From NCBI RefSeq assembly GCF_020740795.1, contig NC_067310.1, positions 429,940-493,939 on the forward strand: a stretch of 64,000 nucleotides of DNA. The letters run 5' to 3'. The position numbers were made by a program, and so were the translations under genes. This document shows positions 2,437-59,775 of this stretch, piece by piece. The DNA is from Apus apus. Taxonomy: Eukaryota. Within the stretch, counting starts at the first letter, position 1; each line of letters starts with the position of its first letter. The notes below the pieces were generated by a model. It had not been told where the DNA came from, did not search any database, and saw only the letters and a list, made by a program, of their open reading frames with translations.

Positions 2437-2881
2437 TGTTGCAAGCTGGTACCGGGGGCTCCCGGCTGTCAGGTGCTTTTGCGACTCCCCCCTCTCAATG
2501 GGGAGGGGTTTGTGAATGAGCCCGAGGGTCACATGCGGTGCTGCCTCTCACAGAGGAACGGCCACTGTGGGACTGTATTGCAGGGGGTAGTTAGAAAGCC
2601 CCCCCACCCCACTACGCTCAGAAATTGCCTCTAAAGCCAAGGTTTGCTCCACAAACTAATTGGTTTATTAAGGGTTAACACAAACTGAGGGATGATGTGT
2701 AGGGACAATGCAGGTGTGAATGGCTACCAGGGATACCAATATGTGTGTAGTGAGAAAGTGTCTTTTAGGGAGGCAATGCAAAGGTGCTTTTAAGGGAGAG
2801 GATTAAGGACCAAACGGAGAAGGGGAGGAGGGGAGGAGGCTGAAGAGGTTGCGCTGTGTGTGCAAGTATGAGGGGAAAGGA

Positions 2882-2923
<42 letters not shown>

Positions 2924-3525
2924 ATGTTCCCCTCCGGCGGCTTGTCCAGCGTCGGTCGGTGGCCGGAGGGCAGGACGGCAGGTCCGTGGTGTCGGAGGGG
3001 CAGCCTCTCGGCAGCGGGTGCAGCGGCCGCTGGTTTCCCCTCCAGGGCAGCAACACGGGGAGGGGGCTCCGGCCCCGACCCCAGGGCTCGGGACCCCGGC
3101 ACGCTCGGCGCTGAGGCTCAGGCTGGACCCGGGGCAGGCAGGCAGGCAGGGTCCCAGCACCAGTGTCCGCAGCAGGGGGGTGTCCCAGGCAGAAAGCGTC
3201 CGAACGGGCCTCAGGGAGGAGGGAAGGGCCCACCTGCTGCCCTCGCCCCTTTGATACCCCCTGACCCACCTGTCCAGTCAGTGTCACTGCCCAGAGCCAA
3301 CGAGCGTCCATGAGCCCCACGTTAGGGCGGTGACTGCCAGGGGCACAGGATGGCTTGTCGCCCATCCTTTCTGTCCCGGGCCACAGCTGTTGTTTTGGGT
3401 TCAGTTGTCCTTGAAAAGCAAGTCTGTTTTAGTTCGTTAGCTGGGGATAATCAGGAGAGGCCTTCGCTGGCTGAAAAGTCATTTTGTTTAGACTGATGTG
3501 GGGAAGAAAAGAACAGTTTCCCACA
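2437..3525 (-). repeat. 5' LTR (1089 bp) of the ERV-L-like provirus. The transcriptional sense is the minus strand (TGTGGGAAACTG...GCTTGCAACA).
   Basis: About 90% identical over its full length to copies at 41209-42310 (inverted) and 59287-60375. It carries an internal (GT)n microsatellite, AATAAA on the minus strand (near 2663-2668) and terminal TG/CA. Confidence 0.8.
2885..2918. repeat. (GT)n microsatellite inside the LTR; also present at 41812-41842 and 59744-59772 in the other LTR copies
   Basis: Direct reading of the sequence. Confidence 0.95.
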
Positions 3526-5790
3526 GTCAGTAACTAAGTTTAGCCTCCCCATAGTGGATTTGACCCCTTTGTGACAAAATGACTGAAAAAGCAAAAAACC
3601 AAGACTCTTGGTAAAAGGCAGGGACTTGTTTTTTGCATTCTTGGCCAAGTATGGGGCTCAGCCCCCTCCTCTCGGAGAAGAATGGGCTCGAGATAATTTG
3701 ATAAATTTTCAGAATGTAATAGACCAAGTCACCTCTTTACAGAGTGAGGCCAAGATTAGGTTTGTTGTACCAGGTAACAAGAGGGCAATAGGCTGTGCTG
3801 GTTTGGGTGTCAGCTTGGTCGCAGCTATTGAGGATCACCTCAAGCAACGTAGTGACCAGGAAAAAATCATGGAATTCCCTGAAAGCTTGGTACACTCTTA
3901 TCAGACGACAATTTCTAGCTTGAAAGAGGAAAACCACTCATCAGGGGTTGCCCTTGAGGTGGATCATGTAAATACCACTGACTTACTGAATGAGGTCTGG
4001 CCTGAGCGTGAGGAAAAGGGCACCCAACAAACTAACCCTGTATACCCAAAAAATGAGTTGGAAGAGGTGAGGAAACTATAGAGAAAGCCCTCAAATGAGA
4101 CCCTTAATTAAAACAGAATATGCTTAATTAAAACAGAACAGCTCCTGCTGCCAGCTCTGTAAGAGTCAGGCATCACCTGCCCTTGGGGGTTGACACTCAG
4201 CCCCATGTCTCCACCCACCCCAGGTGCCTGCAGACTATTTAGGTCCCTCTGTACAAGCCACGCTGCTGTCCAGACACCGAGGCAAAAGGCCAATGGGATC
4301 ATCATGGGGCTGGCCAGGCTGGTGCCCTGTGTGTCCATCCATCCTTCCTGGAAGAGCCAGTGCTCATCACCTCATTGTGGCCATCAGGCTGGGTGGCCAC
4401 ACCCTGCTGAAGGTCGGGGAAGAGCTGCTTCTCCCAGAGCCCGGGGGTTGAAAGCAGCAGCAGGAAAAAATGGTTTTAAAGGTATTAAGGAATTCCTATA
4501 GCTCCAAGACCATGACATCCAACTGCATCTCTTCTCAATTCCAACATTTCCAATGCCTGTAGACATCACTCAAGCTGGATCATGATCCTGGAGCATGAGG
4601 ACCCCTGGAGCAGTGTGAACCACCCCTGTGAAGGTGACTGTGGACAAGTCCCCACAGGAAATGCCCGTTCCCCTCTAGAAGGAGAGGAACGGTGGGAATC
4701 CAGACTGAGGTGAGACACCTCCTGAGATGTGGCTTACTGGACTCTCCTGAAGTCCTGCTGACCATGCTGCTCTTTCCCAGCATTGTCCTACCCCCTTCCC
4801 AGATCTGCTGATGGGCTGAAGGCTCCAAGTTGATCCTGGTGCAGAGCCCCCCCCTCCAGAAGGCCCCAGGAGCAGCTACGGTGGGTGCAGGTTGCAGGTG
4901 AGGGCAAGGGGGATGTGGAGAGGCTGATGGAGGTCTGCAGCCAGCAGCACTGAACCCAGCACCTCATTGCTGTGTCCCCTGGCCATGCAGAGGACCTAGT
5001 GCCCTTTCTGCTCTTCTTTCCTGCTGCAACCAGTGACTCTGCACACATGGGACCCCCAAGCTAATGCTCCACAACCCTCCAGGCAGGCAAGAACAACAAG
5101 ATGCTTTATGCTTGACACAGGATTGGGTGTCCACTGGGACATTCAGCTGGAAGAGGAGAATACCCCCAAAACGATCTTCACACCAGGTTGTGGCTCACCA
5201 TGCTCATCTTCTGCTGATGGGAAGCAGCTCCACACAGTTGGTCCTCACAGATGTGTTGGAGTAATTCTGTTACCTCCAAAGTCCTGGGAGCAACCTTCAG
5301 AGGGACACCAGGGTTTTGCTAAAGATGACCATGGAGGGGTTTAAAAGATGTATTGACGTGGGGCTGAGGGCCATGGTTTAGTGTTGGATTAATGGTTGGA
5401 CTTGGTGTTCAGAAGGGTCATTTCCAACCTCAATAGTTCTGTGGTTTGGTGACTCTTGGCTGCTCTTGGCTTGGCCATCATGCCTCAGTGTGGACCAGGG
5501 CTGAGTTCAAGGTAAATTAATGACATAACCGAGTTCTTCTCAGCTGTGCCAGGACAGAAACCCTGAAGGTAGCTTAGATATTGCTGGGCAAAGAGAAGGT
5601 TTGGTAGATCTCAGGCGTGCACATCGTTTCCATCTTCTTTCCTGTGGGAGAATGATAGAAAGCAAGACTTTCAGTCTGAAGTAGGTGCTGTTCCCTCTGT
5701 GGTGTTCCGAGCTGCCCATTACATCTTGTGCTCTTCCCCCACAGAGCACAAATGCGATGAGACAACCAGCCCACCCCCAGAGGCTTTGAT

Positions 5791-6790
5791 ATGACTGCAT
5801 GTTCCCACTTCCCCAAGCTCCGTGCTGCTTTTTTTGTGCTATTTCTCCTCATGTATGAGGTGGCCCTGGCTGGAAATATGGTGATCATGGTTGTTATCAG
5901 GGTGGAGCAGGGCCTGCACTTGCCCATGGTGTTCCTGGGTGCTCTGTGCTTCTTGGAGCTCTTCTATGTTTTCTCCAACACCCCAAAGATGCTGTTGGGG
6001 TTAATGCCAGGAACTCCTTCTTGGGCTTGTGCTGCCCAGGTGAATTTCTCCTTCACCTTTGGCTTCATGCACTCTTTCCTCTAATGACCATGGGCTATAA
6101 CATGGCCATCTGCCAGCCTCTGGGCTACAACAGCCTCAGGACCTTCTGTGTCTGTGTCTGGCTGGTGTTGGCTTATGGGGTGGGGGGCCTCCTGGGGCTG
6201 CTAAGGACTTGCACTGTCTTCCAGCAACCCTTCTGCCAAGGGTCTAGGACACCTCTCTGCTGGGACCTCTCTGTGTTGGGACATCTCTACACCCAGACAA
6301 CTCTCTGTGGATCAGCAGGTGACACAGTGTGTGCTGATGTCCCAGTGTAGAGATGTCAGTGAAGAGCTGATGGTGGAGAGTTGTCCCTCTCCATCTGCCA
6401 GTCCCACCAGATTGACCATTTCTTCTGCCACATGCCCCCCTGCTCCAGCTGGCTTGTGCTGGTGGTGAGATGGTTGCTGCTGTCCTTTCCATGACTGCTT
6501 CGCTGGGTTGCTTTCTGCTCATCCTCCTCTCCCACACCCTCCTCCTCCTCTCCCACACCCTCATCCTTGGCCGCATCCTGCAGCTGCCCTGGGCAGGGAG
6601 TTGACACAAGCCCTTCTCTACCTGTTCTTCCAATCTCACTGTTCTGGTCACGCACTACGTTGTCTACCTGCCAGGCAAATGGCCCCAGGCTGCAGTGGTG
6701 AGGCCTCTCCTTGATGTGTCCTCCGCAGTGTTCACCCCCTTCCTAAGCCCCATCATTTTTTGGCTGTGAAGCACAGACTTGAAAAAAATG
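5791..6790 (+). pseudogene. Olfactory receptor pseudogene (class A GPCR, OR family)
   Basis: The translation shows OR hallmarks: N-terminal TM1-2 with LHLPMVFLGALCFLE (LHxPMYFFL-like) and an MAICQPLGYNS motif (MAYDRYVAICxPLxY-like). C-terminal PIIF residues align to NPIIYSLRN. The reading frame is broken by frameshifts and stops (ORFs 5791-6084, 5946-6350, then out of frame). Confidence 0.8.
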
Positions 6791-6999
6791 TCCTTTGGAA
6801 TTTCTTGAGGAAACTTAATCATCAGGAATGTGAATTTTTTGGCCAGAGTCCAGTTGCTACTACCAACTATTGTTTGTTTTCCTTGGGTGCTTCCTCGCTG
6901 CTTTCCTGCTTTGTCAGGAAAGGAGTAATTCCTGTGGCTCTTCTGTCTTTCCCACCCCGAGGATGGCAGAGCTTGCTTGGCTGGAGTGTTCTCGTTTAA

Positions 7000-7800
7000 C
7001 TAGATATATAACCTGGTATTCTATGGACATCTGAGAGAAGTCTCTCAATCTCTGGCCCTTGTCCTTGTTGGGGACTTGCCAGATGTCAGTTGGAAGCATC
7101 ACAGAGCAGAGAGGGAACAGGCCTGGAGGTTCCTGGAGTGTATAGAGGATAATTTCCTGACCCAGCTGGTGAGGGACCCTCTAGGGAAGGTGCCCTGCTG
7201 GACCTGCTGTTTGTCAAGAGAGATGGGCTGGTGGAGGGTGTGATGGCTGGAGGCCATCTCGGGCATAGTGGCCATGAAATGAAGTTCTCTGTTCCTGGAG
7301 AAGTAAGGAGGAGGGCCAGCAGCACGGCTGCCTGGGACTTCTGGTGGGCAAACTTGAACCTGTTTTGGAGACTGGTTGACAGGGTCCCTTGGGAGGCCAG
7401 TCCTGAAGGGCAAAGGAGTCCAGGCAGGCTGGACATTCTTCAGGAAGGAAGTCTTAAAGGCACAGGAACGGGCCCCCCCGTGCCGGAAGATGAGCCAGTG
7501 GGGTAGAAGACCAGCCTGGCTGAATAAAGAGACTTGGCTGCTACTCAGGGGAAAAAGGAGAGTGTGTGGCCTTTGGAAAGAGGACAGGCTGGTCAAGATG
7601 ACTACAAGGATGTTGTGAAGCTGTGCAGGGTGAGGATTAGGAGGGACAAAATCCCAACTTGAAATCAAGCTGGCTGCAACTGTCCAAGATGACAAGAAAA
7701 GCTTCTATAAATATATTAACAACAAAAGGAGGACTAAGGAGAACTTCTGTCCCTTACTGGATGCAGCAGGAAACACAGTGATGAGGGGTGATGTCAACGT
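7000..7800 (+). mobile_element. CR1 LINE ORF2 fragment (region N-terminal to the RT)
   Basis: The translation (LLFVKRDGLVEGVMAGGHLGHSGHEM...RPAWLNKETWLLLRGKRRV...KKSFYKYINNKRRTKEN) matches the chicken CR1 ORF2 consensus. Confidence 0.8.
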
Positions 7801-8496
7801 TTGACTCAGGTCCGACAACAATGCTCTCGATCCCCTCCCCCCCCCCCCCCAGGTAGGGAAGGAGAGAGAGAAAAAGAGAGAGACTTGGCTGGATTGAAAA
7901 CTAAACTACACAGCTTTAATTAAAACACTAATGAATCACACAAGAAAATATATACAATTATATACAGATATATTCAGATATGGGCAAAAGCCTCTCGCCT
8001 CCCCCCACCCCCAGCAACTCCCACAGCATCTCCTGAACTGGGAAGAGTCCCGAGGAATCCCGGAGCTGCTGCTGGAGAAAGCGGAGAGTTATGAGGGTCA
8101 GGAGAGCTCGAGCCTAAGGGTCGACGGTGATGGATGAGCAGAGTCCTCCCTGGACGCCGGCCATGGATGGAAGAGAAGGGAAGAAGAAGAAGAAGGAAGC
8201 TGTCTTCTATGATCTCTGACCTTCCTTTGAGCTTACGTAGATATATGGAATGGAATATCTTTGGCCAATTTTGCTGTCTGTCTAACTCAGCCTCCCACGG
8301 GGGGGGTCAGAGATCTCCCCATAGTGTCTGAGCCGGCGGAGTGAAGGTGTAACCTTGAAGCCTCAGTAGTTAGAAAAACATTCCACTGTCTTATCAGCCT
8401 AGCAGAACACACAGTTGCTAGTTAAAAGAAAGCTTACTGAAGGAAAAAAAAATCAGTGAAAAGAAAAATTGGCTTAATCCTGGCTCAAACCAGGAC

Positions 8497-9012
8497 AGGT
8501 GAGGAGAAGGCTGAGGTATCAACGGCACCTTTGCCTCAGTCTTTAGCGGTAGGACCAGTTCCTTGCTGGGTGCACAGGCCCCTGAACTGGCAGACAGGGA
8601 CACAGAGCAGTTTGAAAACCTCATCATCCAAGAGGGGACAGGCAGTGACCTGCTGCACCACTTGGATGTCCACAGGTCCGTGGGGCCGGATGGGATCCAG
8701 CCGAGGGGTCTGAGGGAGCTGGCAGAAGTGCTCCCCAAGCTCCTTTCCATCACTTTCCAGCAGTTCTGGCTGACTAGGGAGGTGCCAGTAGACTGGAGAC
8801 TGGTCAATGTGACCCCAGCTACAAGAAGAGCCATAAGGAGGATCCAGGGACTTGCAGGCCTATCGGCCTGACCTCTGTGCTGGGGAAGTTCTGGAGCAGA
8901 TCATGCTGAGGGCCATCACATGGTCCCCTCTCCTTTCAGCCCTCTGCTGACCAAGGTGCGTGTTTATTTCCATAATGCATGGCCACCCCCCCATATCCCC
9001 ATGCTCTCCCAT
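8497..9012 (+). repeat. Left arm of a near-identical inverted repeat pair; the sequence is CR1 RT-derived (MGPDGIQPRGLRELAEVL...VDWRLVNVTP)
   Basis: It is about 99% identical to the reverse complement of 16384-16908. The six-frame ORFs in the two arms are identical apart from single residues. Confidence 0.8.
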
Positions 9013-9663
9013 CAACATGCCCCCGCCCATGGACCTTCAAAGGTCTCCTCCAGCCCACGTAATTCTGTGAGTCCATAACTGGACGTGTTCCAGGTCAGGC
9101 TGCTCCAGCAGCTTGGAGCAACCTCATCTGGTTGAAGCTGTCCTTGCCCCTGGGCAGGAGGGGCTCCATCCCGAGGATGGACGGAGCTGGTGGCAGCTCC
9201 ATCACCCAGGGCAGCAGGTCAGTGGTTGCCATGACACCATAAGCAGCCAATCAGCAGTTTCCATGTCACCATGATGTCACCATGGGCTGCCCAGGGGTAT
9301 CCAAGGGGCCACGGGGTGGTGTGTCCTACACTCTGGAGAAGCGTCCAGAGGATGAACACGAGGATGAGCTCCCCTGTGGCTGTCGCCCCTAAGAAGCAAC
9401 TTGCCAGCATGAGGTGGACTGAGGTGGAGTTCTGGGATGGGATGGAGCCCACTTTCATGATGCCCAGCATCACAGCTGAAGGTACAGCCCTCCAGCCGCT
9501 GCAGGAACGTTGTGGCGAACAAGGGTGGCACTGCAGCCATCTCAGGGGTGTCACTGTCTGGGCATGACACTGGGCATCTGCCACGGCAGCATGGCTCGGG
9601 AGATAGTGGAGGGCTGAGAGCTGGTGGACATGGAGGATGACCTGGTTCTCCTTTGCTTTCCAG

Positions 9664-9725
9664 AGCGAACAGCCATCTGGGACACGGTGGCTGGCTCCAT
9701 TCAAGATCAGCTCCTGCTGCACAAG
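9664..9725 (+). CDS. CCDC81: CCDC81-like exon (..RTAIWDTVAGSIQDQLLLHK)
   Basis: AG acceptor and GTAGGT donor. The peptide matches the conserved N-terminal HU-domain region of CCDC81 (..IWDxVSxxIQEQLLLxKGVRIP..) recalled from memory. Confidence 0.55.
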
Positions 9726-10115
9726 GTAGGTCAACACCTACATCCTCCTCATCCACCCAGAGGGGTGGGAAGTCCGCGTGGCCCCAGAGCATGCCCCGCA
9801 GTTCCTTTTCACGTCCTCCAAAAAGCAAGAAACTCACCCCAAAGGTCCCCACCCATGAACAAACAAGCCATGTGGTGTCACCTCTGGCAGGTGGTGTTGT
9901 GACAAAGGCTGGTCCTGTTTTCTGGGGACCTCCCAAATGCTTTTTTGGAGGAGAAAGGACTCGGCATGACCAAAGCACTCCCCACTGCCCCAGCTCATGC
10001 CTCTGAAGAGCAGGAGTGGGCAGGATCCAACCTGAAGCACCATCCCTGGTCAGGCCCACCTCTAGATTTTCCCTCTGCACAATCTTCACCCTTTGGCTGT
10101 TCCGCTCTGCTCCAG

Positions 10116-10269
10116 GGGCTCCGAATTCCCAGCCTTGGCTCCTTTGACGCTGTCCCCAAACAGATCCAAGTTGGGGGTGAGGTTGTGACCATCCAGAGGC
10201 CTGTGTTTCACCTGGCCAGGAACCTCGTGGTTGTCCACAACCTACGGGACAACAAGTCCTACCTGCCTG
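10116..10269 (+). CDS. CCDC81: CCDC81-like exon (GLRIPSLGSFDAVPKQIQVGGEVVTIQRPVFHLARNLVVVHNLRDNKSYLPG)
   Basis: In frame with the previous exon. Flanked by a CAG acceptor and GTAAGA donor. Matches the CCDC81 motif RIPxxGSFD...TIQxPVFxLxRN. Confidence 0.65.
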
Positions 10270-10399
10270 GTAAGATGGTGAATGAAATCTCGGATGATTG
10301 CATGGTCATTGCGTCCCATCCCTGGGTCTGAAACACCAGCAGAAGCTCCACAAGGTGAGCATCTCCATCCCTCTTGTGTGTTTTTGCAGGCAACAAGGA

Positions 10400-10645
10400 G
10401 CTGGAACCCCTCAAATACTCCAAGGTGGCTACAGCCATCTCTGTGTCCCGACGGAAAGTGGAGGGCTGCATCCAAGGCACCGTGTCCCTCCTCTCTCACT
10501 GTCTGGGGAAGGGGAAGAACGTCTCCCTCATCCTGAAGGATGTTGGGGTGCTCCTCATAGAGGGCAGCAAGGTGCAAATGAAGTTCTACTATGACTTCCT
10601 GGACAGGATGTCTGGGAAGGAGAACTTGGAGAAAGCTGTTTCCCA
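10400..10645 (+). CDS. CCDC81: CCDC81-like exon (GNKELEPLKYSKVATAISVSRRKVEGCIQ...KDVGVLLIEGSKVQMKFYYDFLDRM...)
   Basis: Phase-consistent with the previous exon. GCAG acceptor and GTGAGC donor. Strong similarity to the CCDC81 motif NKELEPLKY...NDVGVLLIKGTKVQMKFYCDFL. Confidence 0.65.
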
Positions 10646-10841
10646 GGTGAGCGTGTGGGTTTCTCCGTGGGGTGGGCAGTCCCACGGCAGTGTCCCAGCA
10701 CTGCTGGCATGTGACCCACCAGGACACGGCCACTTGGGCCAGGCGAGATCTATGGTGCTACCAACAGCTCTCACTCCTTTGACATTGAGGGCCTCATCCC
10801 TGCTGAGGACGTCCTGCCATCTTTGTGCTCCTCCACTGCAG

Positions 10842-10927
10842 GTCCCCCAGCTGCTGAACATGACTGTGTCCCCGGTGGTGCCCGTGGCCTCACTGACTTT
10901 CTCTGGCCATGTCATCATCTTTCCCGA
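10842..10927 (+). CDS. CCDC81: Probable further exon of the CCDC81-like gene (VPQLLNMTVSPVVPVASLTFSGHVIIFPE)
   Basis: CAG acceptor and GTGAGT donor, in frame. Confidence 0.4.
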
Positions 10928-11314
10928 GTGAGTATGTTGGTGGCTGGAGCCACTCTTTGTCATAGATGTCCAAGGTAGCGTTTGCTCCTCATGATGACAT
11001 GTGTCCTCCCATGGGGACACAAGGCAGCGACTCTTGTAGCTGTCCTGGGGTTGTAGTTGCTCCTGTGAGGCTGATGTGATGGGAAAGACAGAGGAATTTA
11101 GGTGACACTTTCTTCTCCTGGTGTCCTGGAATCCTTTGTTGGGTGACTGCACTTCCTGGGATGGTCCTCAAGGTTGGGGCATGGTGGACTTGGGGAAAAC
11201 CTGGTGGCCTTTTGGAGAACAATGCCAAAGCCTGCCTGTGAGAAGGAGATCCCAGTGAGCAGCAAGGGCTGGTGGTGCTCTGGGTCACGTTGGTGTCTTC
11301 CCCTTCTTTTCCAG

Positions 11315-11430
11315 GTTTGAAATGGAGGTTGTGTCCAAACCACCACCCAGGCCTCTTCTCAAGACCTTGAAACAAGACCCTGGTGAGGTCGAGGAGATGA
11401 GGAGAGAGAGTTTTCCATCTCCTGGACAAG
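11315..11430 (+). CDS. CCDC81: Probable further exon of the CCDC81-like gene (EFEMEVVSKPPPRPLLKTLKQDPGEVEEMRRESFPSPGQ)
   Basis: CCAG acceptor and GTAGG donor. The phase is consistent with the 10842-10927 exon. Confidence 0.4.
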
Positions 11431-11699
11431 GTAGGAAAGGTCAAAGCAGCTCCCGGCTCCTTTTGGTGACACAGGCAACCAAATTTTCCAGGGAAGTCGC
11501 CAGCCTTGTGTGTCACAACTTCTCTCCTTTCTGGTTCCAGTGGGTTTTCCTGGTTTTCCCTTTGCTCCTGGTCCAAGTCCAACTCACGAAGACTTTGGGA
11601 AAGTAACAGAGCCAAAGAAGAGGAGAATGTCTCAGGTCAGGTGAGGCTGGAGGCTTTGGGCAGTGCCTGGACGGGGTCCCTTGGCTCAGAGGTGGGTGA

Positions 11700-11757
11700 T
11701 GCCCTATTCACAGAAACATTCAAGGTCAGGTTGGACAGGGGGCTCGGAGCAACCTGG
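11700..11757 (+). mobile_element. CR1 3'-end fragment
   Basis: The segment ggtcaggttggacagggggctcggagcaacctggt is characteristic of the CR1 3' terminal region. Confidence 0.6.
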
Positions 11758-11900
11758 TGTCGCGAGCCGGTATCGGGGGCTCCCGGCTGCCCCCCCAATG
11801 TGGAGGGGTTTGTGAATGAGCCCGAGGGTCACACGTGGTGCTGCCTCTCACAGAGGAACAGCCGCTGTGGGACCGTGTTTTAGAGTGGAAGTTAGAAAGC
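11758..11900 (-). repeat. About 140-bp fragment of the ERV-L-like LTR (U5 end)
   Basis: The segment tgtcgcgagccggtatcgggggctcccggctg...gtttgtgaatgagcccgagggtcaca aligns to the first roughly 140 bp of the LTR copies at 2437, 42310(rc) and 59287. Confidence 0.7.
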
Positions 11901-13204
11901 ATTAGGTAATGCAAAAAGTGCTGTGCCCTTAAAGCGTTGTGTCTGTGAGAGGGTTGTGGATCAAAGGAAAGGGAGCGTGACCCCCCTGTCCAGCCAGTGT
12001 CACTGTCCAGAGCCACTTGGCACCATGAGCCCCAAGTTAGGGCGGTAACTAGCAGGGCAATGCAGAACTTGTTGCCCATCCTTCCTGTCTTGTACCACAT
12101 CTGCTGTTTTGGTTTTGTTTGTCCTTGAGCAGCAGGCCTGGTTTTGGTCCATTAGCTGGGTATAATCAGCAGATTTATGAGGGGAAGAAGAAGAACAGTG
12201 TCCCACACCTGGTCTTGTTGACGATGTCCTTGCCCATGGTCTAGCTGGACCTTCACAGTTCCTTCCAACCTGAAACACTCTGCGAGTCCATGATCAGAAG
12301 ACTGCAAAGTCAGGTTGGATGGGGCTTGAAGTTACCTGGTGTGGTTGAAGATGTTTCTGCTCATTGCGGGGGCTTGGACCAGATGGACCTGCAAAGATCC
12401 TCTCAACCCCCATGTGGCTCTCAGGGCAGGCTGGATGCAGCCTCAAGCCATCATGTCCTCAGGCAGATCTCTCCCATTGTGTCTTTGCAGGAAGCAACTG
12501 GTGATATCGCGGGATTCCTCTGCCAAAAAGCAGCTGGTGACCACCCAAGCCAAGGGCAAGCCTGCTTCCAAAGGCCGAGCATCGAAGCAGGTGGTGAAAT
12601 CTGAGAGCTACAGAGGAGGAGGAGGACGAGGAGAAGGAGGAAGAAAAGGAGGTGGAGGAGAAGGAGGACCAGAAGGACCAGGATCAGGAGGGCAAGGAGG
12701 AGGGGAAGGATGGGTGGAGAAAATCCTTGCTGAAATGGCAGTGCCGAAGACAACGAAGGCCCTGCCCAGCCATTCCCAGCCAGCCTTGACTTTCCAAACA
12801 CCGCTGATCGCTGTGTTTTCGGCTGAGAGCTCTGACATCTGGAGCCCACTGCAGTAGGCAACTCACCAGGTTCTCCCAGGCACTCCCAGGGCCACCAGTG
12901 AGATCAAGATGGCCAAAATAGTAACATTGAGGCCTGAAGAATTCTGGTCAGTGGTGGAATAACCTCATGTTGTGGTTTAAGTGGCCCCTGTAGGTTGTTG
13001 ACACCTATCTGAGGAACTAGAGAGAGGGTCTTTAGGCCTCCGAAGGAGCTGAGAGGGGTCAGGATTCCCTCTGGCTTGCTGCTGTCCTCTATACAAGCCA
13101 AGAGAACTGGGAGCTCAGCCCCTTTTTCTTCCTGCACCTTCTTCCTTGCAGCTGCTGCTGCTCAGAGGTTCTTCAACTCACCAGGTGCTCTCCAGAATCC
13201 AACT

Positions 13205-13505
13205 CCATCAGGTGCATTGAGGAGCTGTGGACCCCTCTCCTGAGGCAGCCTTGCTCCAAGGGTCCCTCACCCACCTACTCCTGCCATCCTTGAGATGGGT
13301 TTTTTATCTGTCTGTGTGTCAGTTTATAGAACTGTTCTCCCCGACACCTGTTACTCCCTTTTCCGTGTTAGAGTAAATTTGTTCCAGATCCCATCTCCAG
13401 CCCTTCAGTCTCTCTTCCTTGTTCCCCTTCTGTCTTCCCTTGGGAGGGTGGAGGGGGGTAATAAGGAGCAATTCTGCCTTCTGGTTTGTACTTTGCCCTG
13501 ACCAC
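13205..13505 (+). repeat. Unclassified interspersed repeat (LTR-like); the second copy is at 55492-55765
   Basis: The two segments are about 80% identical (ggacccctctcctgaggcagccttgc...cagtctctcttcctt...ccctgaccac). Confidence 0.6.
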
Positions 13506-13539
13506 GAAACCAGGACACCTCAGAAGATGACAGACATGG

Positions 13540-14350
13540 GGGTCTGGGACAATTCATAGAATGCCAGGTTGGAAGAGACCTCAAGGATCATCTGGTCCAG
13601 CCTTTCTAGGTACTACTCTAGATTCTATCAGATGGCTCAGCACCTGGTCAAGCTTAGACTTAGAACTATCCAATGTGGGGGAATCCACCACTTCCCCTGG
13701 GAGACTATTCTAATGTCTGACCGTCCTCATGGTGAAAAATTTACCTCTTGTGTCCAGTCAGAATCTCCCCAGGAGCAACTTGTGCCCATCACCCCTTAAC
13801 TTTTCCATGTGACTCCTCCTTGTAAACAGGGACTCTCCAACTTCTTGGGAGTCACCCTTGAAACACTGGAACATGGTGAAAAGGTCTCTCCTGAGCCTTC
13901 TTTTCTCCAGGCTGAACAAACCCAGTCTGCTCAGCCTCCCCTCATATGGCAGGTCCTCCAGTCCTCTGATCATCCTTGAGGTTTTTGTAGAGCAGGGCCC
14001 AAAGCTGAATACAGTACTGCAGGTGTGGTCTGACAAGCGCCGAATAGAACGGGATGATGACTTCTTGATCTCTGCTGGTGATGCCCTTGCTGTTGCAGGC
14101 CAACATCCTCTTGGTTTCTTTGCCCTTCAGTGCACTGTGCACTCATGTTGAGCCTGTTGTCCACCAAGACCCCCAGGTCCCTTTCCACAGGGCTGCTCTC
14201 CAGCCAGCTGGGTCCCAGTCTGAACTGTGCTCCTGAGTGATGTGCTCCCAGACCTTACACTTCTCCCCATTGAACTTCATAAGGTTCCTGCTAGCCCACT
14301 CCTCCAACCTCTCTAGGTCATCCTGAAGGGTGGCTCTCCCTTCTGGGCCA
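13540..14350 (-). mobile_element. CR1 LINE fragment (ORF2 C-terminal region, antisense to the plus strand)
   Basis: The minus-strand translation FSLEKRRLRRDLFTMFQCFKGD... is typical of the CR1 ORF2 C-terminus. Confidence 0.75.
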
Positions 14351-14439
14351 CCACCATCTGGCAGCCACCATCTGAGAGCTGCCACCAGATGCCACCACCA
14401 TCTGGCTGCCACCAATTGGGTGCCGGACACATCAACACC

Positions 14440-14650
14440 ACCGAGCCTCTCAGCACAAGGGAAAACGTCTGGATTGTGAGGGTGACAGAGCACTGGGACA
14501 GGCTGTCCAGAGAGGCTGTGGAGTCTCCTTCTCTGAAGACATTCCAAATCCCCCTGGATGCCGTCCTGTGTGACGTGCTCCAGGCAGTCCTGCTTTAGCA
14601 GGGGGTGAACTAGCTGATCTCTAGAGGTCCCTGCCAACCCAACGATGCTG
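14440..14650 (+). mobile_element. CR1 3' end
   Basis: The peptide RVTEHWDRLSREAVESPSLKTFQ..LD matches the CR1 ORF2 C-terminal consensus. Confidence 0.8.
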
Positions 14651-15384
14651 TGATTCCATGACTCCCTGAGGGGACACCTGGCTGCTGGTGGGGACACAGC
14701 ACTGGTCCAGCCCCCCTTGCACCCTGAGTTCCCCAAGGCCCTTGGCCGTGGTTGGGCACCTGAGCCTTGCTGCTGGTTTCCCAGCCCAGCCCTGCTTTTT
14801 TGTTCCCTGCCCCCCACCCTCTCAAAGATGCTTCTAACTCCTGTGATACTGAATTTGTCCACACAGGTGTCACGTGTTTAGCCAATTTACTCACATTCCC
14901 ATGAAATGGCTCTGATTTTCTTGTTTGTTTTCTGTTCAAATTACATGAAGTGTGAATCCTTCAGTTTTGCTGCCAAGCCCTGTGACACCCCAGAGCTTTC
15001 CAAAATCTGAAATAGTGAGAGACAGATTCAGCCATCGTCCTGCCACCAGTGCACTCGCCACAGGCCACCACCAGTGCTGCTGGTCAAAGGAGGTGGCCAA
15101 CCACACCTGCAGCAGGACCACGCAGAGAGGAGGTGGAAAGGGCCGCTTGGTAGAGGGCATGGAGAGCGCATGTCCTAACCCATCCCACCAGGAGCAGAGG
15201 GAGAGTCCTGCCACAAGCCCTGCAGCCAGACGCCAGCCTTGACAATGCCATCCTGTTGATGTGGCACCTGAAAACAGGGATCTGTGACCCCTCAGGGACT
15301 GATGGCAGTGTGCTCTGTTCCTCTGCCATCTGGCTTTCCCCAGACACTGTTTCCTGGGCAGATTGGGCATCGGCTCAGCTTCCC

Positions 15385-16000
15385 TGGGTCGGGATCATAG
15401 AATCATAGAATCTCAGAAAGGTTAGGGTAGGAAGGGACATTAAAGATCATCTAGATACAACCCCCTTTGTGGGCAGCGACACCTCCCACTAGATCATGTT
15501 GCTTAGAGCCCCATCCAACCTGGCCTTGAACACTGCCAGGGGCGGAGCTTCCACAGCCTCCCTGGGCAACCTGTTCCAGTGCCTCACCACTCTAACAGTA
15601 AAGAATTTACCACTAATATCCAATAAATCTCCCCTCGTCAAGTTTTTAACCATTGTCCCTTGTCCTCTCACTACATGCCAGTGCAAAGGGTCCTGCCCCA
15701 GCTTTCTTGTAGGCCCCTTCAGGTATTGGAAAGCCGCTGTAAGGTCACCTCAGAGCCTCTTCTTCTCCAGGCTGAACAACCCCACCTTCCTCAGCCTGTC
15801 TTTATAGGGCAGGTGCTCCAGTCCTCTGATCATTTTTGTCACCTTCCTCTGGACTCACTCAAGGCACTCTATGTCCTTCTTACATTGAGGGCTCCAGAAC
15901 TGGACATAGTATTCCAGGTGGGATCTCACAAGAGCAGAGTAGAGGGGGAGAATCGCCTCCCTCAACCAGCTGGCCAAACTTCTATTTGCTCTTTTCACTG
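15385..16000 (-). mobile_element. CR1 fragment
   Basis: It begins with catagaatcatagaatc, the reverse complement of the CR1 3' terminal octamer repeats. The minus-strand [31 protein letters not shown] is CR1-like. Confidence 0.8.
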
Positions 16001-16383
16001 ATGGCTCCTGTCATCTTGTAGGGAACCACCAAAAGTGGAAAGCTGCTGTGTTGGGTCCTACACAACTGGTTGCAGAGGCAGCTGAAGGAAAAGGTGAATT
16101 GAGTCAGTTTGCAGAGGTCAAAGCCATCCAGCTGGCTTTGGACACTGCTGAGTGAGAGGGGTGGCAAAGACTATTTCCAGCTGGACCAGCTTATGAGGAG
16201 GGCTCCTTGGATTTGGGCTGGGGTCTGAGACATGATAGGGGTTACAGGCACCCCATACTCACCCCTTGGGTGCCAGGAGTTGGCAGCAGGGATGGAGATT
16301 GAGCAGGGGACCCATGGGGTGGGTCCAAGGGCTGGGATCTGGACAGGGGGGGCACACTTGGGTGGAGGGGGGAGGAGGAGAGT

Positions 16384-17075
16384 GGGCATGTTGATGGGAG
16401 AGCATGGGGATATGGGGGGGTGCCCATGCATTATGGAAATAAACACGCACCTTGGTCAGCAGAGGGCTGAAAGGAGAGGGGACCATGTGATGGCCCTCAG
16501 CATGATCTGCTCCAGAACTTCCCCAGCACAGAGGTCAGGCCGATAGGCCTGCAAGTCCCTGGATCCTCCTTATGGCTCTTCTTGTAGCTGGGGTCACATT
16601 GACCAGTCTCCAGTCTACTGGCACCTCCCTAGTCAGCCAGAACTGCTGGAAAGTGATGGAAAGGAGCTTGGGGAGCACTTCTGCCAGCTCCCTCAGACCC
16701 CTCGGCTGGATCCCATCCGGCCCCATGGACCTGTGGACATCCAAGTGGTGCAGCAGGTCACTGCCTGTCCCCTCTTGGATGATGAGGTTTCAAACTGCTC
16801 TGTGTCCCTGTCTGCCAGTTCAGGGGCCTGTGCACCCAGCAAGGAACTGGTCCTACCGCTAAAGACTGAGGCAAAGGTGCTGTTGATACCTCAGCCTTCT
16901 CCTCACCCCTCATCACTGTGTTTCCTGCTGCATCTGAAAAAGGGTGGACATTCTTCCTAGTCCTCTTTTTGCTGCTCATGTATCTGTAGAAGCATTTCTT
17001 GTGATCGTGGACAGCTGCATGAAACAGAGCATTACCCAAACTCTGACTTCAAACAGTTCACTGCTTGTAGGGTGT
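16384..17075 (-). mobile_element. CR1 ORF2 fragment; 16384-16908 is the right arm of the inverted repeat pair
   Basis: The translation is the same as at 8497-9012. Towards the 5' end it continues as CR1 (KKCFYRYMSSKKRTRKN...), where it is more diverged from the 7000-7800 copy. Confidence 0.8.
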
Positions 17076-17899
17076 AAATCTCTCATCTGGGCCTACTGCT
17101 AGTGAGTGTGAAAGCCTTTTGTGTGAGCTGGTCTGGAGTTTTAGGGAAGAAATACAAGGGTCCTTGAAGAAGAAAGAAGCCGTTCAGCTGAGACTAGGGA
17201 TGCCTCCTGTAACCAGTTCTGCTGCAGAGTCAGCCGAGAGAAATGGGAGAAGAGACAGAACTCGGCCAAAGGTTCCTGTGAGGAAGACTCAAGGATGAAG
17301 TAAACAACCCCCTGGTCAGAGGGGTGTGCCCACACAATATGGAAAGAAACAGGCAAGGGAAAATGGGGAGGATGGGGACAGGAGGGGAACGGGGAGCTGG
17401 TATTTCTGCAAGGGGATACTGGGATGTCCAGGGGGAAGGATGGATCTCCAAGGGCTCCAGGACATGAGGGGAAGAGGGCCGGGGCCATGTCCAGGAGGGG
17501 ATGATGGGCAAACGAGCTGCTCATGGGAGATGGGGGTGAGGCTGGTTCAGCGGGGGGGGCAGAGGAGCAGGTCTGTGTGCCAGGGCAGTGCAAGGGACAT
17601 GGGTGCAACAAGAGCTGAACAGTGTCTGCAAGAGGGGACTGTGGATCCAGGACCTTCAGAAATCATACAGGGCCATCTCCAACTTCTCGGGGCCATCCAC
17701 AGCCTCTCTGGGCCATCCTCAGCCTCTCTGCACAAGCTGCTCCAGTATCTCACTATCCTTCCACACGAGCTGATGTCATGCTGGGCAATAATAAAGTGGG
17801 ATCAAAGAAGGGGTTGGGGAATGTGTCCCAAGGCAGGTGTCACTCTCCAACTGGCTGGGCAGCTGGGTGGGAGCTGTGATTCTCCCTCTGTGCTCAGCA

Positions 17900-23700: not shown

Positions 23701-24012
23701 GCCTCGGATGATGCAGCTGCGGGAGCCCCCGGGCCAGGGGAGGTGCCTGTTCCCGAAGCCCCCGTGACTCTGGGCAGCGCTGGAGCAGCTCGCCACGATC
23801 CCGGCAGAGCCCATTATTCGGACTGTGCTGTGGTGGAGCTAAAATGGACTGTCGTAAGATAACTGAGACACTCCCCTTTAATCAGGTTTTCTGACACCAG
23901 CCCAATCACAACCATGGGATTCCTGCCCTTCCAGCGACACAAACAGAGCAATGACGACCGGAGCGATCACGTGGGCTCGCTCCAAACCGGAGCGGACGCG
24001 GACGTGCCGGGC

Positions 24013-24096
24013 GGTGCGGGCGGAGCCCCTCGCGGTGCGGGCGGAGCCCCTCGCGGTGCGGGCGGAGCCCCTCGCGGTGCGGGCGGAGCCGCTGAC
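24013..24096. repeat. 21-bp minisatellite (ggtgcgggcggagcccctcgc), four copies
   Basis: Direct reading. It is translated as (SARTARG)n in minus-strand ORF 23878-24114. Confidence 0.9.
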
Positions 24097-24999: not shown

Positions 25000-26420
25000 G
25001 GAACAGGATCGGGTCCAGGTGGGCTTTGAATATCTCCAGAGGAGACTCCACAACCTCACCAGTCTGTCTCAGGGCTGTCACCCTCACAGGAAAGTTCTTC
25101 CTCATGTTCAGGTGGAGCTTCCTGTGTTCCAGTTTGTGCCTGTTGCCCATCATCCTGCTGGTGCCTCTTGCTCAGGCACCATGGAGAGGAGCCTGGCCCA
25201 ATTCTCCTGACACACCCCTGGAGATATTGATAAGCACTCATAAGATCCCCCCTCAGTCTTTTCTCCAGGCTGAGCAGCCCCATGTTTCTCCTAAGAGAGA
25301 TGCTCTAGTCCCCTCCTCATCCTCGTAGCCCTCTGCCAGGCTCTCTCCAGTAGCTCCTAATCTGTCTTGTACTGGGGAGCCCAGAACTGGCTACAGTATT
25401 CCAGATGTGGCCTCACCAGAGGAGAGTAGAGGGGTGGAAAACCTCCCTCGACCTGCTGGACACACGTCTTCATGCACCCCAGGAAGCCATTGGCCACCTT
25501 GGCCACCAGGGCACATAACTGGCTCATGGATAACTTGGTGTTCATTAGGACTCCTAAGGTCTTTCTCCACAGAGCTGCTCTCCAGCAGGTCAGCCCCCAG
25601 CCTGTGATGATTCAGGGGGTTGTTCCTTCTCAGGTGCAGGACCCCACACTTCCCCACATTGCACCTCATGAGGTTCTTCTATGCCCAAGTCTCCAGCCTG
25701 TCCAGGTCACCCTGGATGGCAGCACAGCCCTCTGGGGTTTCACCACCCCTCCCAGTTTGGTGTCACCAGTGAACCTGCTGAGAGGACACTGTCCCTTCAT
25801 CCAGGTCACTGATGAAGATGTTGACAGGACAGGACCCAGCACTGACACCGAGGGACACCACTGGCTACAGGCCTCTGGCTGGGTCCCATGCTACAGCTCA
25901 GAGCTCTGCCACCAGCCAGTCTTCAGCCCACCTCCCTGTCCACTCCAGAGTCTAGAAGCAAACCAGTAATTCCTGGCACTACAGGTGCCAGGGAAACCAC
26001 CCCAGTGTGTGGTGCCAGGCAAGATGAGGTTCTGTTTCCTCAGCTGTAGTGTCATCTTCAACCCTGCAGACTTTCTCCTCCTGACAAAAGCTTCACCCCA
26101 TGCAAATGAAACCTTGGATGGCTTTTGGAGGTGAACACAAACTTCTCCCAGGTGGTTCCATTTCACTGGAAGAAGGCACTGGAACTGGTTGCCCAGAGAG
26201 GTTGTGGCTGCCCCATCCCTGGAGATGTTCAAGGCCAGATTGGATGACGTTTGTGCAACTTGGTCTGGTGGGAGGTGTCCCTGCTTATAGCAGGGAGGTT
26301 GGAACCTGATGATCTTCAAGGCCAGATTGGATGAGGTTTGTGTAACTTGGTCTGGTGGGAGGTGTCCCTGCTTATAGCAGGGAGGTTGGAACCTGATGAT
26401 CTTCAAGGCCCCTTCCAGCC
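25000..26420 (-). mobile_element. CR1 LINE, about 1.4 kb (RT C-terminal part)
   Basis: Minus-strand ORFs MGLLSLEKRLRGDLMSAYQYLQGC... and ...GKCGVLHLRRNNPLNHHRLGADLLESSSVEKDLRS.. match the CR1 ORF2 consensus. Confidence 0.75.
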
Positions 26421-33279: not shown

Positions 33280-33960
33280 GGGAGCACTGGGGTGGGGAGT
33301 TGCAGGCACTGGGAGCAGCGATAGGGGGGACTGGGATGAGGTGGAGGGGTATTGGGGAACTGGGAGGGGGTTTGGAGGCACTGGGAGCAGGAATAGGGGG
33401 TACTGGGAGCAGGGATAGGGGATACTGCAAGCAGGGACAGGGGGGACTGAGAGGACTGGGACGAGATGGAGGCATACTGGGGCACTAGAAGGGAGTTTGA
33501 AGGCACTGGAAGGGATTTTGCAGGCACTGGGAGCAGGGATAGGGGGTACTGGGGGCACTGGGATGAGGTGGAGAGGTATTGGGGCACTGGGATGGAGGTT
33601 GGAGACACTGGGAGCAAGGATAGGGGGGACTGGGAGCACTGCGATGAGATACATGGGATACTGGGAGTACTGGGAGGCTGGGGGGGACACAGGGCTGGGG
33701 TAAATGGTTAGTGGGAGTACTGGGATGGGGCTGGGGGCACTGGGGATGTGTGGGAGGTTACATAGGCTATAGAGGGGCTATGGGGGGGCATGGGGCCTAT
33801 GTGGGGGCTTTAGGGGCTATGGAAGGGGCTTTGAGGAGGTTCTAGGGGCTATGGGGGGGCTATAGAGGGGCTATGGGGAACTTTGTGGAGCTGTGGGAGT
33901 CTATAGGGGATATAGGGGGGATACTGGAGGGCCACAGGGGCTATAGGGAGCTGGGGGGGC
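33280..33960. repeat. Intronic tandem repeats: about 40-bp units (GGCACTGGGAGCAGGGATAGGGGGTACTGGGA..) followed by GGGGCTATGGGGG-type units (MVP intron)
   Basis: Direct reading of the sequence. Confidence 0.8.
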
Positions 33961-36027: not shown

Positions 36028-36780
36028 GGAGCAGGGGCAGGGGTGACATTGAGGTGCTCAGGGAGGGAAGGGGATGGGGAGCCCGAGGGGTGCTGGGGTG
36101 GGAGGGGGCTGAGGAGTAGGCAGCAAAGGGGGGGCCACAGGGGTGTTGAGGGCCCTGAAGGTCCTAAACATCCTAAGGGTGCTGAGGGCAAGGGGTCCTA
36201 CAGGTGGGGTGGCAGCCCTGAGGATGCTGGGGGTCCTAAAGGCGGGATGGGAAGAACCGGAGGGGTCTGGGTTGGGGGCCCTAGGGGAATTTGGGGTTCT
36301 GAGAGTCCTGTGGGTGCTGGGGGATAAGACGGGGGATCCCAGGGGTGCTGCAGGGGGGAAGGAGGGGTTATGGGGGCTGGGAGTGCTGGGGGTCCCAGAG
36401 GTGCTGTGGGGTGCGAGAGGAGTGTTGTGGAGGAGGGGTATGGGAGTGATGGGGCTTCCAGGGTCACTAAGGGATGGTAGAGGAATCCTGGGAATGCTGT
36501 GGAGTAGGGAAGGGGTGCTGGGGACTCCTGGAGGCCCCCAGGGGTTCCTGTCAGATGACACAAAGCTCCCAAGGGTGCTGGAGGGTAAGGGGACATGGGG
36601 TGGATACAGGGTGTCCCAGGGATGCATCCAGAGGGGGTCCCATGAGGGCCACCAGTGGCACGGGTGACATGGTGCCAGGTGACCCCAGGGAGAATGGGGG
36701 TGATATGGTGCCAGCTGATCCCAGGAGGGTGGTCTCTGTCCCCAGGAGCCCAGGGGTTGTCCCCAGGTGGTACCTGTCAC

Positions 36781-36904
36781 CCGGCGGGTGCCTGAACGGT
36801 CCAGACACTCCTTGCGCGCGCGCAGCCGGATCGCCTGGTTGTGCCCAATGACCGTGGCCTGAAGGGTCTCTGCCACCTCCACCTCCTTGCGGGGGATGTA
36901 GGTG
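36781..36904 (-). CDS. MVP: MVP exon ([44 protein letters not shown])
   Basis: Matches [44 protein letters not shown]. Confidence 0.85.
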
Positions 36905-37149: not shown

Positions 37150-37560
37150 TGGCACCGCCCAGGTGGGAAGGGGTTGGGGAGGACACCTGGGGACAATGGT
37201 GAGTGACACAGGGGGGATGAGGGGGACACTTGAGGACAATGGTGGGTGACATGGGGGGATGGGGATGGGGCACTTGGGGACAGTGGTGGGTGACATGGGG
37301 GGTAGGGATGAGGTGAGGGTACTTGGGGCAATGGTGGGTGACACAGGGGGGTCACTGTAGGGGCTAAGGGGCATGGTTGGGGTCCATGGGGGTATAGGAG
37401 GTCATGGGGGGGCTAGAGGATGTTCTTGGGGGGCTATAAGAGTGCATGTGGGGCCTACAGAAGGCCCTGGGGAGATACAGGAGGTCCTGGGGGGGCTATA
37501 GGAGGCAGTGTGGGGGGGTGCTGTGGTGGCCACAGGAGCTGCCCAGGCCTCAGGAACCGC
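37150..37560. repeat. Intronic G-rich tandem repeats (ggtgggtgacatggggggatgggg.. / ggggctataggagg..) in an MVP intron
   Basis: Direct reading of the sequence. Confidence 0.7.
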
Positions 37561-39035: not shown

Positions 39036-39477
39036 GGGGCAGGTGGCTTCACCGTGGGGCAGGAGACCTTCCTGGGGTGGAGATGAGATTGCTGTGGGGC
39101 AGAAGAGATTGCTGTGTGGCAGAAGAGATGATTGCTGTGGGGCAGATGATTAACATGGGGTGGATCCGCTCATTGCACAGGGTGGGGCAGACGGAAGACC
39201 TGGTCACGGAGCTCCTGGTGAGGTGGAAGCCCTTGTCATGGGGTGGAAAAAACTTGCCATGGGGGCACACATGGGGGGACTGTATGGGCAGCTCATGGTG
39301 AGTGGGGGGAGATAGGCAGAAGGGTCCCCCCATGGGGGAGTCTAAGTGGGGTGGGAGCCCTTGGCACCAGATGGGGAAGGTGCAGGACAGGCACTGGGAG
39401 GTGAGTGGGGTTGCTGGGGGGATGGAGGAGCTGCACACAGGGTGGGACAGAGCCCAAGGGGCAGGGAGTCCCTCCAG

Positions 39478-41807: not shown

Positions 41808-41845
<38 letters not shown>

Positions 41846-42310: not shown

Positions 42311-42529
42311 CTCGGTCAACTGGGTAGATTGGAGAGTGAGCCACAGGATCGTTTAGGTTGGAAGGGATATCTTAAGGTCACCTGGTACAACCTGCTGTAC
42401 AGTGCATCATGCTGGGACAGGGCAAGAGCATCTAGTCAGGAGCAAGGGTAACAGCCCAAGGGGTCCAGGACATGCCCAGGAGAAACCACTGCATGCTTGT
42501 CCCAGCACTGTCACCTGCTCCCTGGGGCC

Positions 42530-59737: not shown

Positions 59738-59775
<38 letters not shown>

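Follow-up and report, generated by a model that had tools for sequence, protein, structure and literature searches.

The stretch of DNA analysed here, which we call the window, comprises 64,000 nucleotides of the Apus apus genome (NCBI RefSeq assembly GCF_020740795.1, contig NC_067310.1, positions 429,940 to 493,939 of the forward strand); unless stated otherwise, coordinates are those of the window. In its left part, a CCDC81-like gene is bracketed by two nearly identical copies of a 551-bp sequence in opposite orientation, the plus arm and the minus arm, most of which is derived from CR1 retrotransposons (Table 1). The plus arm is itself split by a 706-bp insertion. Our subject is the anatomy of this inverted pair, its age and its probable origin.

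The CCDC81-like gene consists of six coding segments (approximately 9271-9480, 9663-9725, 10107-10268, 10389-10649, 10836-10928 and 11292-11441), which correspond to residues 1-268 of a 271-aa stork homologue. No stop codon falls within the matched segments, and the gene is apparently intact. Its HU-CCDC81_euk_2 domain was recognized with an E value of 6e-26, and the match to HU-CCDC81_euk_1 was weak. The initial annotation of this DNA had placed all recognizable CCDC81-like exons between the arms, and the whole recognizable gene does indeed lie there. It begins about 250 bp past the plus arm, so that this arm, with the long terminal repeat (LTR) inserted in it, occupies the proximal upstream region of the gene. 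The minus arm lies about 5 kb downstream of the gene, and the remainder of the spacer, from 11.5 to 16.4 kb, is made up of CR1 debris and unannotated sequence.

Table 1. Features of the inverted pair and its surroundings, in window coordinates (L001, Chaetura pelagica locus; ORF2, second CR1 open reading frame).
Feature	Position	Strand	Remarks
5' part of plus-strand CR1, ORF2 ~aa 46-276	7073..7759	+	Outside the high-identity repeat; last 85 bp 72.9% identical to 17019-16935
Outer part of plus arm, 32 bp	7760..7791	+	Identical to 16934-16903; split from the remainder by the LTR
Solo-LTR-like insertion, 706 bp	7792..8497	-	TGT...ACA; GGTGA target-site duplication; empty site in two homologues
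Main part of plus arm	8503..9022	+	CR1 ORF2 ~aa 289-425 (to 8924), then 97-bp non-CR1 tail (8925-9022)
Short CR1 3'-terminal fragment adjoining plus arm	9023..9074	+	Orthologous to Chaetura L001 8256-8312
CCDC81-like gene	9271..11441	+	Six coding segments; HU-CCDC81_euk_2 and weak HU-CCDC81_euk_1
CR1 3' portion, ORF2 aa 666-828	15492..15977	-	Same strand as minus arm, 504 bp downstream of it
Minus arm, 551 bp	16384..16934	-	Non-CR1 tail (16384-16481) and CR1 (16482-16934); putative donor, native copy
Motif pair X1 (16420-16449) and Y1 (16450-16466)	16420..16466	+	Imperfect repeats Y2 (17310-17324) and X2 (17325-17355)
5'-most 85 bp of minus-strand CR1	16935..17019	-	Orthologous in Chaetura; 72.9% identical to 7675-7759
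Flank F of minus arm	17026..17840	+	Unique, single-copy in window

A first repeat scan returned the arms as two abutting inverted pairs, 8616-9022/16384-16790 (100% identity) and 8498-8617/16788-16907 (99%). By BLASTN, 8498-9022 on the plus strand aligned with 16907-16384 on the minus strand over 525 nt, with three mismatches and a single one-base indel (99.24% identity). The arms had initially been placed at 8497-9012 and 16384-16908, coordinates that proved correct to within 10 bp, and the original estimate of about 99% identity is borne out over both this alignment and the longer one that follows. When the LTR and one copy of the GGTGA that flanks it were excised from the plus arm, near-identity continued 32 bp further outward (7760-7791 matching 16934-16903). 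The arms without the insertion, 7760-7791 plus 8503-9022 on one side and 16934-16384 on the other, are 551/552 bp each; aligned in full, they show 548 matches, three mismatches and the one-base indel, corresponding to 99.46% identity and a Kimura two-parameter (K2P) distance of 0.0055. The V/M and T/M residue differences noticed earlier in conceptual translations are real, but both reflect one G/A difference at 8680, read on two strands.

Pairwise alignment of the arms and their flanks set the breakpoints at 7759/7760 (outer) and 9022/9023 (inner). The outer step falls inside CR1 and is abrupt: identity drops from 99.5% to 72.9% (62/85) over the next 85 bp, in which the two copies remain in register (7675-7759 versus 17019-16935; Fisher p = 8.5e-19). 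Outward of this stretch similarity between the copies ends, giving a total of 636 bp of detectable homology. On the inner side, homology stops outright at 9022/16384. Within the arms, perfect blocks of 53, 90, 64, 302 and 39 bp follow one another, and identity is even up to both edges. These perfect blocks and the undiminished identity at both edges speak for a single event that fixed the two boundaries, rather than for patchy conversion within an old repeat.

The arms stand apart from the other repeats in this DNA. Self-comparison of the whole window (E < 1e-20) yielded 42 repeat pairs of at least 100 bp, among which the arm pair was the only one above 96% identity; most pairs were 70-85% identical, and the best other CR1 pair reached 91.4%. 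The resemblance of the arms is therefore far outside ordinary CR1 similarity here, as had been suspected from the sequence at first sight, and is not due to chance. Judged by the conventional definition of a segmental duplication or low-copy repeat (at least 1 kb and at least 90% identity), the pair is too short, with 551 bp of high identity. Its identity of 99.46% lies well within the second limit, which includes non-transposon sequence, and its 97-bp tail is unique DNA, which in both species runs on without a break into the spacer.

To map the CR1 content of the arms by tblastn, we used as reference an 828-aa composite ORF2 made from three bird proteins and the 19-aa C-terminal tail of a fourth (P0128). 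Translations of the arms match bird CR1/jockey-like reverse transcriptases (RTs), with E values down to 8.5e-111. A Pfam scan of these translations gave no match, because the RT domain starts only where the arms end. The plus-strand CR1 comprises aa 46-287 at 7073-7792 and aa 293-417 at 8518-8891, with similarity on to about 8924; the minus-strand CR1 comprises aa 249-417 at 17018-16515 and is truncated at its 5' end at aa 249 (~17019). The 5' ends of the two elements thus differ (aa 46 and aa 249, respectively), and their stop is common, at about aa 425 of the composite, where the RT domain begins; both lack the 3' part of CR1. The original statement that both arms end at the same internal CR1 positions accordingly holds for the inner ends but not for the outer ones. 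Past the CR1 stop, both arms continue into the same 97 bp of non-CR1 sequence (8925-9022 matching 16481-16384), with one mismatch. The CR1 3' portion at 15492-15977 and the minus-arm CR1 may belong to the same original element.

The shared tail also contains, at 8933-8963 and 16442-16472, a 16-nt micro-exon look-alike, CCCTCTGCTGACCAAG, set between consensus splice sites (cctttcag before it and gtgcgtg after it). We found no evidence that this micro-exon-like sequence is used, and it may be a coincidence.

The insertion that splits the plus arm is 706 bp long (7792-8497), has TGT...ACA ends and is flanked by a 5-bp duplication, GGTGA (7787-7791 and 8498-8502). GGTGA is single at the matching place in the minus arm, and the insertion site is empty both there and in the chimney swift Chaetura pelagica, the outgroup introduced below. 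With TG...CA-type termini, a target duplication within the 4-6 bp typical of solo LTRs and an empty homologous site, the insertion is, as judged from these structural marks, a solo-LTR-like element. Read on the minus strand, it carries TATATA at 534-549 and ATTAAA at 578. Its start (TGTCCTGGTTTGAGCC...) we take to resemble the LTRs of avian endogenous retroviruses (ERVs). The only other similarity to it in the window is a stretch of 92 bp at 76% identity (43910-44000). The initial annotation had described a 650-bp A-rich insertion that preceded the plus arm and was missing from the minus arm; its absence from the minus arm stands, but the insertion measures 706 bp, is solo-LTR-like and lies inside the repeat. 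Because the site of the LTR lies within the high-identity tract, and neither the minus arm nor Chaetura carries the LTR, the insertion of the putative ERV and its collapse to a solo LTR are younger than the event that copied the arm.

The Chaetura locus was found through the best protein match over the central exons, a partial CCDC81 that is 99% identical there; it lies on contig KN126322.1 (L001). L001 is collinear with window 4008-17876, with 88-93% identity by BLAST and 95.3% in a global alignment of the spacer, and the K2P distance between window and Chaetura is 0.05-0.08 (global alignment). This identity of the locus exceeds that of any paralogous repeat within the window. The spacer is oriented alike in the two species with respect to window 4008-4131 and 17328-17840. 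Two further loci were uninformative on the arms: that of the hummingbird Oreotrochilus is orthologous to 9066-12630 at about 73% identity and has N gaps on both flanks, and that of the treeswift Hemiprocne, about 72% identical over the exons, is probably a paralogue.

In Chaetura the CR1 unit is present as a single copy (L001 6910-7476), which has the same aa 249 truncation as the minus arm. This unit aligns with the minus copy through the outer boundary, into the adjoining 85 bp and on into flank F, the unique sequence beside the minus arm (17026-17752), and it does not match the 85 bp next to the plus copy (7675-7759). The right side of the Chaetura locus, in turn, aligns with the minus copy through the inner boundary (...CATGCCC followed by ACTCTCC...) and into the spacer. 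Both ends of the minus arm are thus continuous in the Chaetura orthologue, so that neither is a breakpoint, which marks the minus arm as ancestral and as the donor. A donor that keeps its ancestral sequence and context, seamless against the outgroup, is what gene conversion predicts.

The plus copy is chimeric. Its outer neighbour is a different, longer CR1, and its inner neighbour is the tiny CR1 3' end at 9023-9074, which is orthologous in Chaetura and therefore predates the copy event. In Chaetura the orthologous fragment is preceded by other sequence, the 3' end of another CR1 with ATTCTGTG repeats. The plus-arm inner junction at 9022/9023 is non-homologous and falls in a C-run, with at most about 5 bp of ambiguous microhomology. 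At the equivalent of window 9070-9074, Chaetura carries a specific insertion of about 380 bp (L001 ~8313-8695), with a GTCCG duplication and a start in TG, by which it resembles a further solo LTR specific to one lineage, situated just upstream of the CCDC81-like gene.

The same comparison provides a relative age. Either arm differs from the Chaetura copy by a K2P distance of about 0.082 (92% identity), and the 0.0055 between the arms amounts to about 7% of that. When the differences were polarized with Chaetura, the minus arm was found to carry two derived changes, a G>A at a CpG corresponding to 8524 and a 1-bp deletion, and the plus arm another two, at 8680 and 8983. Two of the three mismatches (8524 and 8680) are at CpG sites. 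The low divergence, together with two derived changes in each arm, implies that the arms have drifted independently since one homogenizing event, which took place well after the split from Chaetura.

These data lead us to favour, as probable though well short of certain, the conclusion that the arms are a young inverted paralogous pair that arose by recent right-to-left non-allelic gene conversion or templated repair. The initial annotation had likewise argued for a recent inverted duplication or gene conversion rather than separate CR1 insertions, and the shared junction, the 97-bp tail and the 99.5% identity bear this out. Under the conversion model, the minus copy (16384-16934) would be native, consisting of a CR1 fragment with a truncated 5' end and, after it, ordinary unique DNA. 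The initiating lesion, a break or a stalled fork, would have lain about 7.4 kb away in a longer CR1 of opposite orientation, just upstream of the CCDC81-like gene, and its repair would have been templated by the minus copy. One end would have paired through CR1-CR1 homology, producing the identity switch at 7759/7760; synthesis would have run for 551 bp through the CR1 fragment, including 97 bp beyond it into non-CR1 DNA; and the other end would have been sealed without homology, by non-homologous or microhomology joining, in the C-run at 9022/9023, beside the older short CR1 3' fragment. This sealing would have removed the remainder of the recipient CR1. The product would be a hybrid CR1, together with an inverted repeat of 551 bp that has the gene between its arms. 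Later, about two private changes would have accumulated in each arm, and the plus arm would have received an ERV that was then reduced to a solo LTR. As to the repair pathway, we infer either gene conversion in which only one of the two ends is homologous, or a template switch of the type known as fork stalling and template switching (FoSTeS) or microhomology-mediated break-induced replication (MMBIR).

Conversion tracts usually span some hundreds of base pairs but rarely exceed 1 kb (PMC3961182), a range that includes the 551-bp tract described here. The pair further resembles the products of non-allelic gene conversion between dispersed retrotransposons in that a patch of near-identity of about 550 bp is set in LINE (long interspersed nuclear element) copies that are otherwise 73% identical, with a step that is sharp and in register at one end and a donor that is unchanged. 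Unlike a classical two-ended conversion tract, however, this one leaves CR1, runs into 97 bp of unique DNA specific to the donor and ends at a non-homologous junction, so that the recipient gained new sequence and lost the rest of its CR1. That the tract runs into donor unique DNA and has a non-homologous end points to coupled homologous and non-homologous repair, or to template switching, rather than to classical conversion. FoSTeS and serial replication slippage leave microhomology junctions of 2-5 nt and can incorporate sequence in inverted orientation through reversed repeats (PMC2583991). The Apus locus shares with such events, and with MMBIR, the inverted use of a nearby segment, a few bases of microhomology at one junction and a net deletion in the recipient. 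It differs from them at its other junction, which lies in at least 85 bp of 73% homology in exact register; this argues for homology-directed invasion, and not microhomology, at that end. The locus is a fresh instance of a known and ordinary class of event, transposon-templated ectopic conversion that makes a small inverted low-copy repeat.

Two other accounts of the arms are far less likely. Because about 450 bp of each arm derives from CR1 ORF2, one might imagine two separate insertions, in opposite orientation, of a recently active CR1 subfamily. Target-primed insertions of CR1, as a LINE, keep the 3' end of the element, with its 3' untranslated region and ATTCTRTG-type terminus, and are truncated variably at the 5' end only; after independent retrotransposition, similarity between copies is confined to the element. 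Here both copies are instead truncated on the 3' side at about aa 425 and lack the CR1 3' end and its terminus, they share 97 bp of non-CR1 DNA past the truncation, the plus copy is chimeric, identity falls to 73% within CR1 at 7759/7760, and no other CR1 pair in the window exceeds 91.4%. The shared 3' truncation and shared non-CR1 tail rule out two separate retrotranspositions, and we regard this account as improbable in the extreme. Alternatively, one copy might have been pasted or polished from the other during assembly, or a false inverted duplicate might be the product of a mis-join. Assemblies are known to have trouble with short repeats that are nearly identical in bird regions rich in repeats and in GC. 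In addition, an exact look-up of eight window open reading frames (ORFs) that span the junctions found none of them in the protein collection, which leaves the junctions without an independent copy, and a protein search with a 75-aa ORF across the inner boundary of the minus arm returned no candidates. Nevertheless, four positions and a 706-bp LTR with a clean target duplication distinguish the copies, the flanks of each are coherent and distinct, and the Chaetura assembly supports both arm sequences at 92% identity. An artefact is therefore very unlikely. A plain inversion arising through non-allelic homologous recombination (NAHR) was rejected on logical grounds as the source of the identity: a crossover swaps the inner halves of diverged inverted copies and leaves them as unlike as before, and so it cannot explain 99.5% identity.

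Several observations do weigh against the conversion model. In Chaetura, the CR1-plus-flank unit occupies, in plus orientation, the site of the window's plus arm, to the left of the gene. Flank F stands there beside the CR1 unit, and its distal part recurs on the right, so that the orthologous gene, too, is surrounded by an inverted repeat (L001 6161-6613 versus 17921-17466; 96.7% identity over at least 456 bp). This repeat is the equivalent of window 17328-17752, which is single-copy in the window, and its left arm abuts a 3.4-kb N gap. Some inverted-repeat architecture around the gene may thus predate the species split, and the plus arm may stem from an older left copy. In addition, the few ambiguous bases of microhomology in the inner C-run do not allow the pathway to be named with confidence, the arms are known from a genome assembly alone, and the one usable outgroup assembly is gapped and built from short reads, with its 3.4-kb N gap directly to the left of the relevant copy. 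A different history, which we consider rather unlikely, is that an older and longer inverted repeat (at least 1.4 kb, comprising distal flank, proximal flank, CR1 fragment and tail) was present in the common ancestor with Chaetura and was kept uniform by repeated conversion (concerted evolution); in the window lineage its left copy would then have been trimmed by a deletion between two direct CR1s, which created the hybrid CR1, and the surviving 551 bp would have been recently re-homogenized. Consistent with this, the copies of the Chaetura inverted repeat are closer to each other (96.7%) than to the window flank (88-90%), the Chaetura CR1 unit agrees with the plus arm in place and orientation and lies, like it, upstream of the short CR1 3' end, and the yeast flip/flop region (PMC9731477) is a known example of homogenized inverted repeats that persist from species to species. 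Such a history nevertheless requires more events (an ancestral duplication, two deletions per lineage and conversion in both). Nor do the inner ends of the left copies agree, since the window copy ends at 9022 and the Chaetura copy at the equivalent of 8957; there is no second copy of flank F in the window; and identity undiminished to both edges, with no decayed homologous margin, would be atypical of an old repeat patched internally.

The layout of the right side complicates any reconstruction further. In Chaetura this side lacks a block of about 875 bp (window 16450-17325), which its left side has; the block consists of the minus-arm CR1 and the proximal flank. In the window it is bracketed by imperfect direct repeats of 30-35 bp, X1 (16420-16449) and X2 (17325-17355), where in Chaetura (L001 17434-17540 and 6540-6660) the right side has a single hybrid X. 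Either the block was lost by deletion between the short repeats, or it was gained as a templated insertion. The Chaetura left copy does not continue into the second half of the tail or into the spacer, and its homology ends at the equivalent of 8957/16449. Single histories that would join the two layouts, by a duplication plus deletion, by two nested inversions or by reciprocal conversions, were considered; several of them fit and, with two species, none is compelling. The conversion model and the older-repeat history nonetheless have one requirement in common: to reach 99.5% identity, a recent recombinational transfer between the two sides is needed under either of them.

The initial annotation had further proposed that the segment between the arms could be polymorphic for inversion by NAHR. 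On the evidence of repeat structure, this potential is plausible, and no inversion has been observed. In its favour are the inverted arrangement of the arms, their 99.5% identity, the perfect block of 302 bp and the spacer of 7.4 kb; limiting it are the shortness of the arms (551 bp), the splitting of one of them by the LTR, and the common orientation of the spacer in the window and Chaetura. The minimal uninterrupted identity is put at about 134-232 bp in mitotic assays and, for meiotic NAHR in humans, at about 300-500 bp (PMC2583991), so that the longest perfect block exceeds the former and sits at the lower edge of the latter. The arms resemble the repeats at human NAHR inversions (Aguado et al., 2014, PMC3961182; PMC6748972) in being inverted, more than 99% identical and a few kilobases apart with a gene between them, and in having a perfect block of about 300 bp. 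However, the inverted repeats of 24 human NAHR inversions are between 654 bp and 24.2 kb long (Giner-Delgado et al., 2019, PMC6748972), whereas the window arms measure 551 bp, one of them split into 32 and 520 bp; and, unlike those inversions, the window segment is known in one orientation, which is also that of Chaetura.

A further parallel is the flip/flop region of yeast chromosome XIV (PMC9731477). There, as here, a gene segment lies between inverted repeats that are more alike within than between species, and in our case the gene is surrounded by an inverted repeat in the related species, Chaetura, as well. The yeast repeats are 4 kb long and contain functional genes, and both orientations occur in every species (PMC9731477). 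In the birds, by contrast, the arms are 0.55 kb of transposon debris, different segments are repeated in each species, and no flipped state is known. We think it improbable, but worth stating, that the swift CCDC81-like gene sits in a persistent flip-flop cassette, whose repeats are re-created or re-homogenized in each lineage and whose 7.4-kb segment toggles within populations. If so, inversion would by turns connect the gene with, and separate it from, the sequence upstream of it, of which the new solo LTR is part.

The wider interest of the locus hinges on whether the segment is polymorphic in orientation. Independently of this, it offers a clean, datable case of old transposon fragments still driving structural change in a bird genome, in which two CR1 fragments that are only 73% alike and in opposite orientation would have sufficed to template repair. 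It also cautions that a near-identical CR1 pair need not signal recent CR1 activity. Such repeats are candidate substrates for small inversions, and error-prone spots for assemblies and short-read variant callers.

Elsewhere in the window, a TGT...ACA repeat of about 1.09 kb occurs three times, at 2437-3525 (+), 41209-42311 (-) and 59286-60375 (+), with 93-95% identity overall. In all three copies a GC-rich block of about 450 bp at the centre is essentially the same, and the 5' third is much more diverged. These repeats are probably LTRs. A partial, older copy lies inside the spacer at 11752-12173 and is found in Chaetura too (L001 11342-13175). Two kilobases from the copy at 59.3-60.4 kb, a 456-aa ORF on the minus strand (62537-63907) has matches to RVT_1 (E value 2.8e-26) and to the RNase H-like domain RT_RNaseH_2 (E value 1.2e-16); it is a fairly intact pol of an LTR retroelement or ERV.

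The base composition of the window varies widely, from 60-70% GC at 28-42 kb to a GC fraction of 0.40-0.42 at 48000-54600, where the plus strand shows a strong purine skew (GC skew reaching 0.26 and AT skew 0.24). A minus-strand ORF in the GC-rich block, at 36058-36882, matches the Major Vault Protein (MVP) repeat domain (PF01505, E value 1.7e-07), which suggests that an MVP gene lies on the minus strand in this part of the window. A 160-bp tandem repeat is present in 1.8 copies at 54240-54523. The GC-rich part also contains G-rich minisatellites with periods of 20-87 bp, at 24011-24090, 26224-26410, 33295-33639, 37170-37516 and 39054-39734, among them a perfect array of 3.8 copies of a 21-bp unit (24011-24090) and an array of 12.4 copies of a 20-bp unit (39487-39734).

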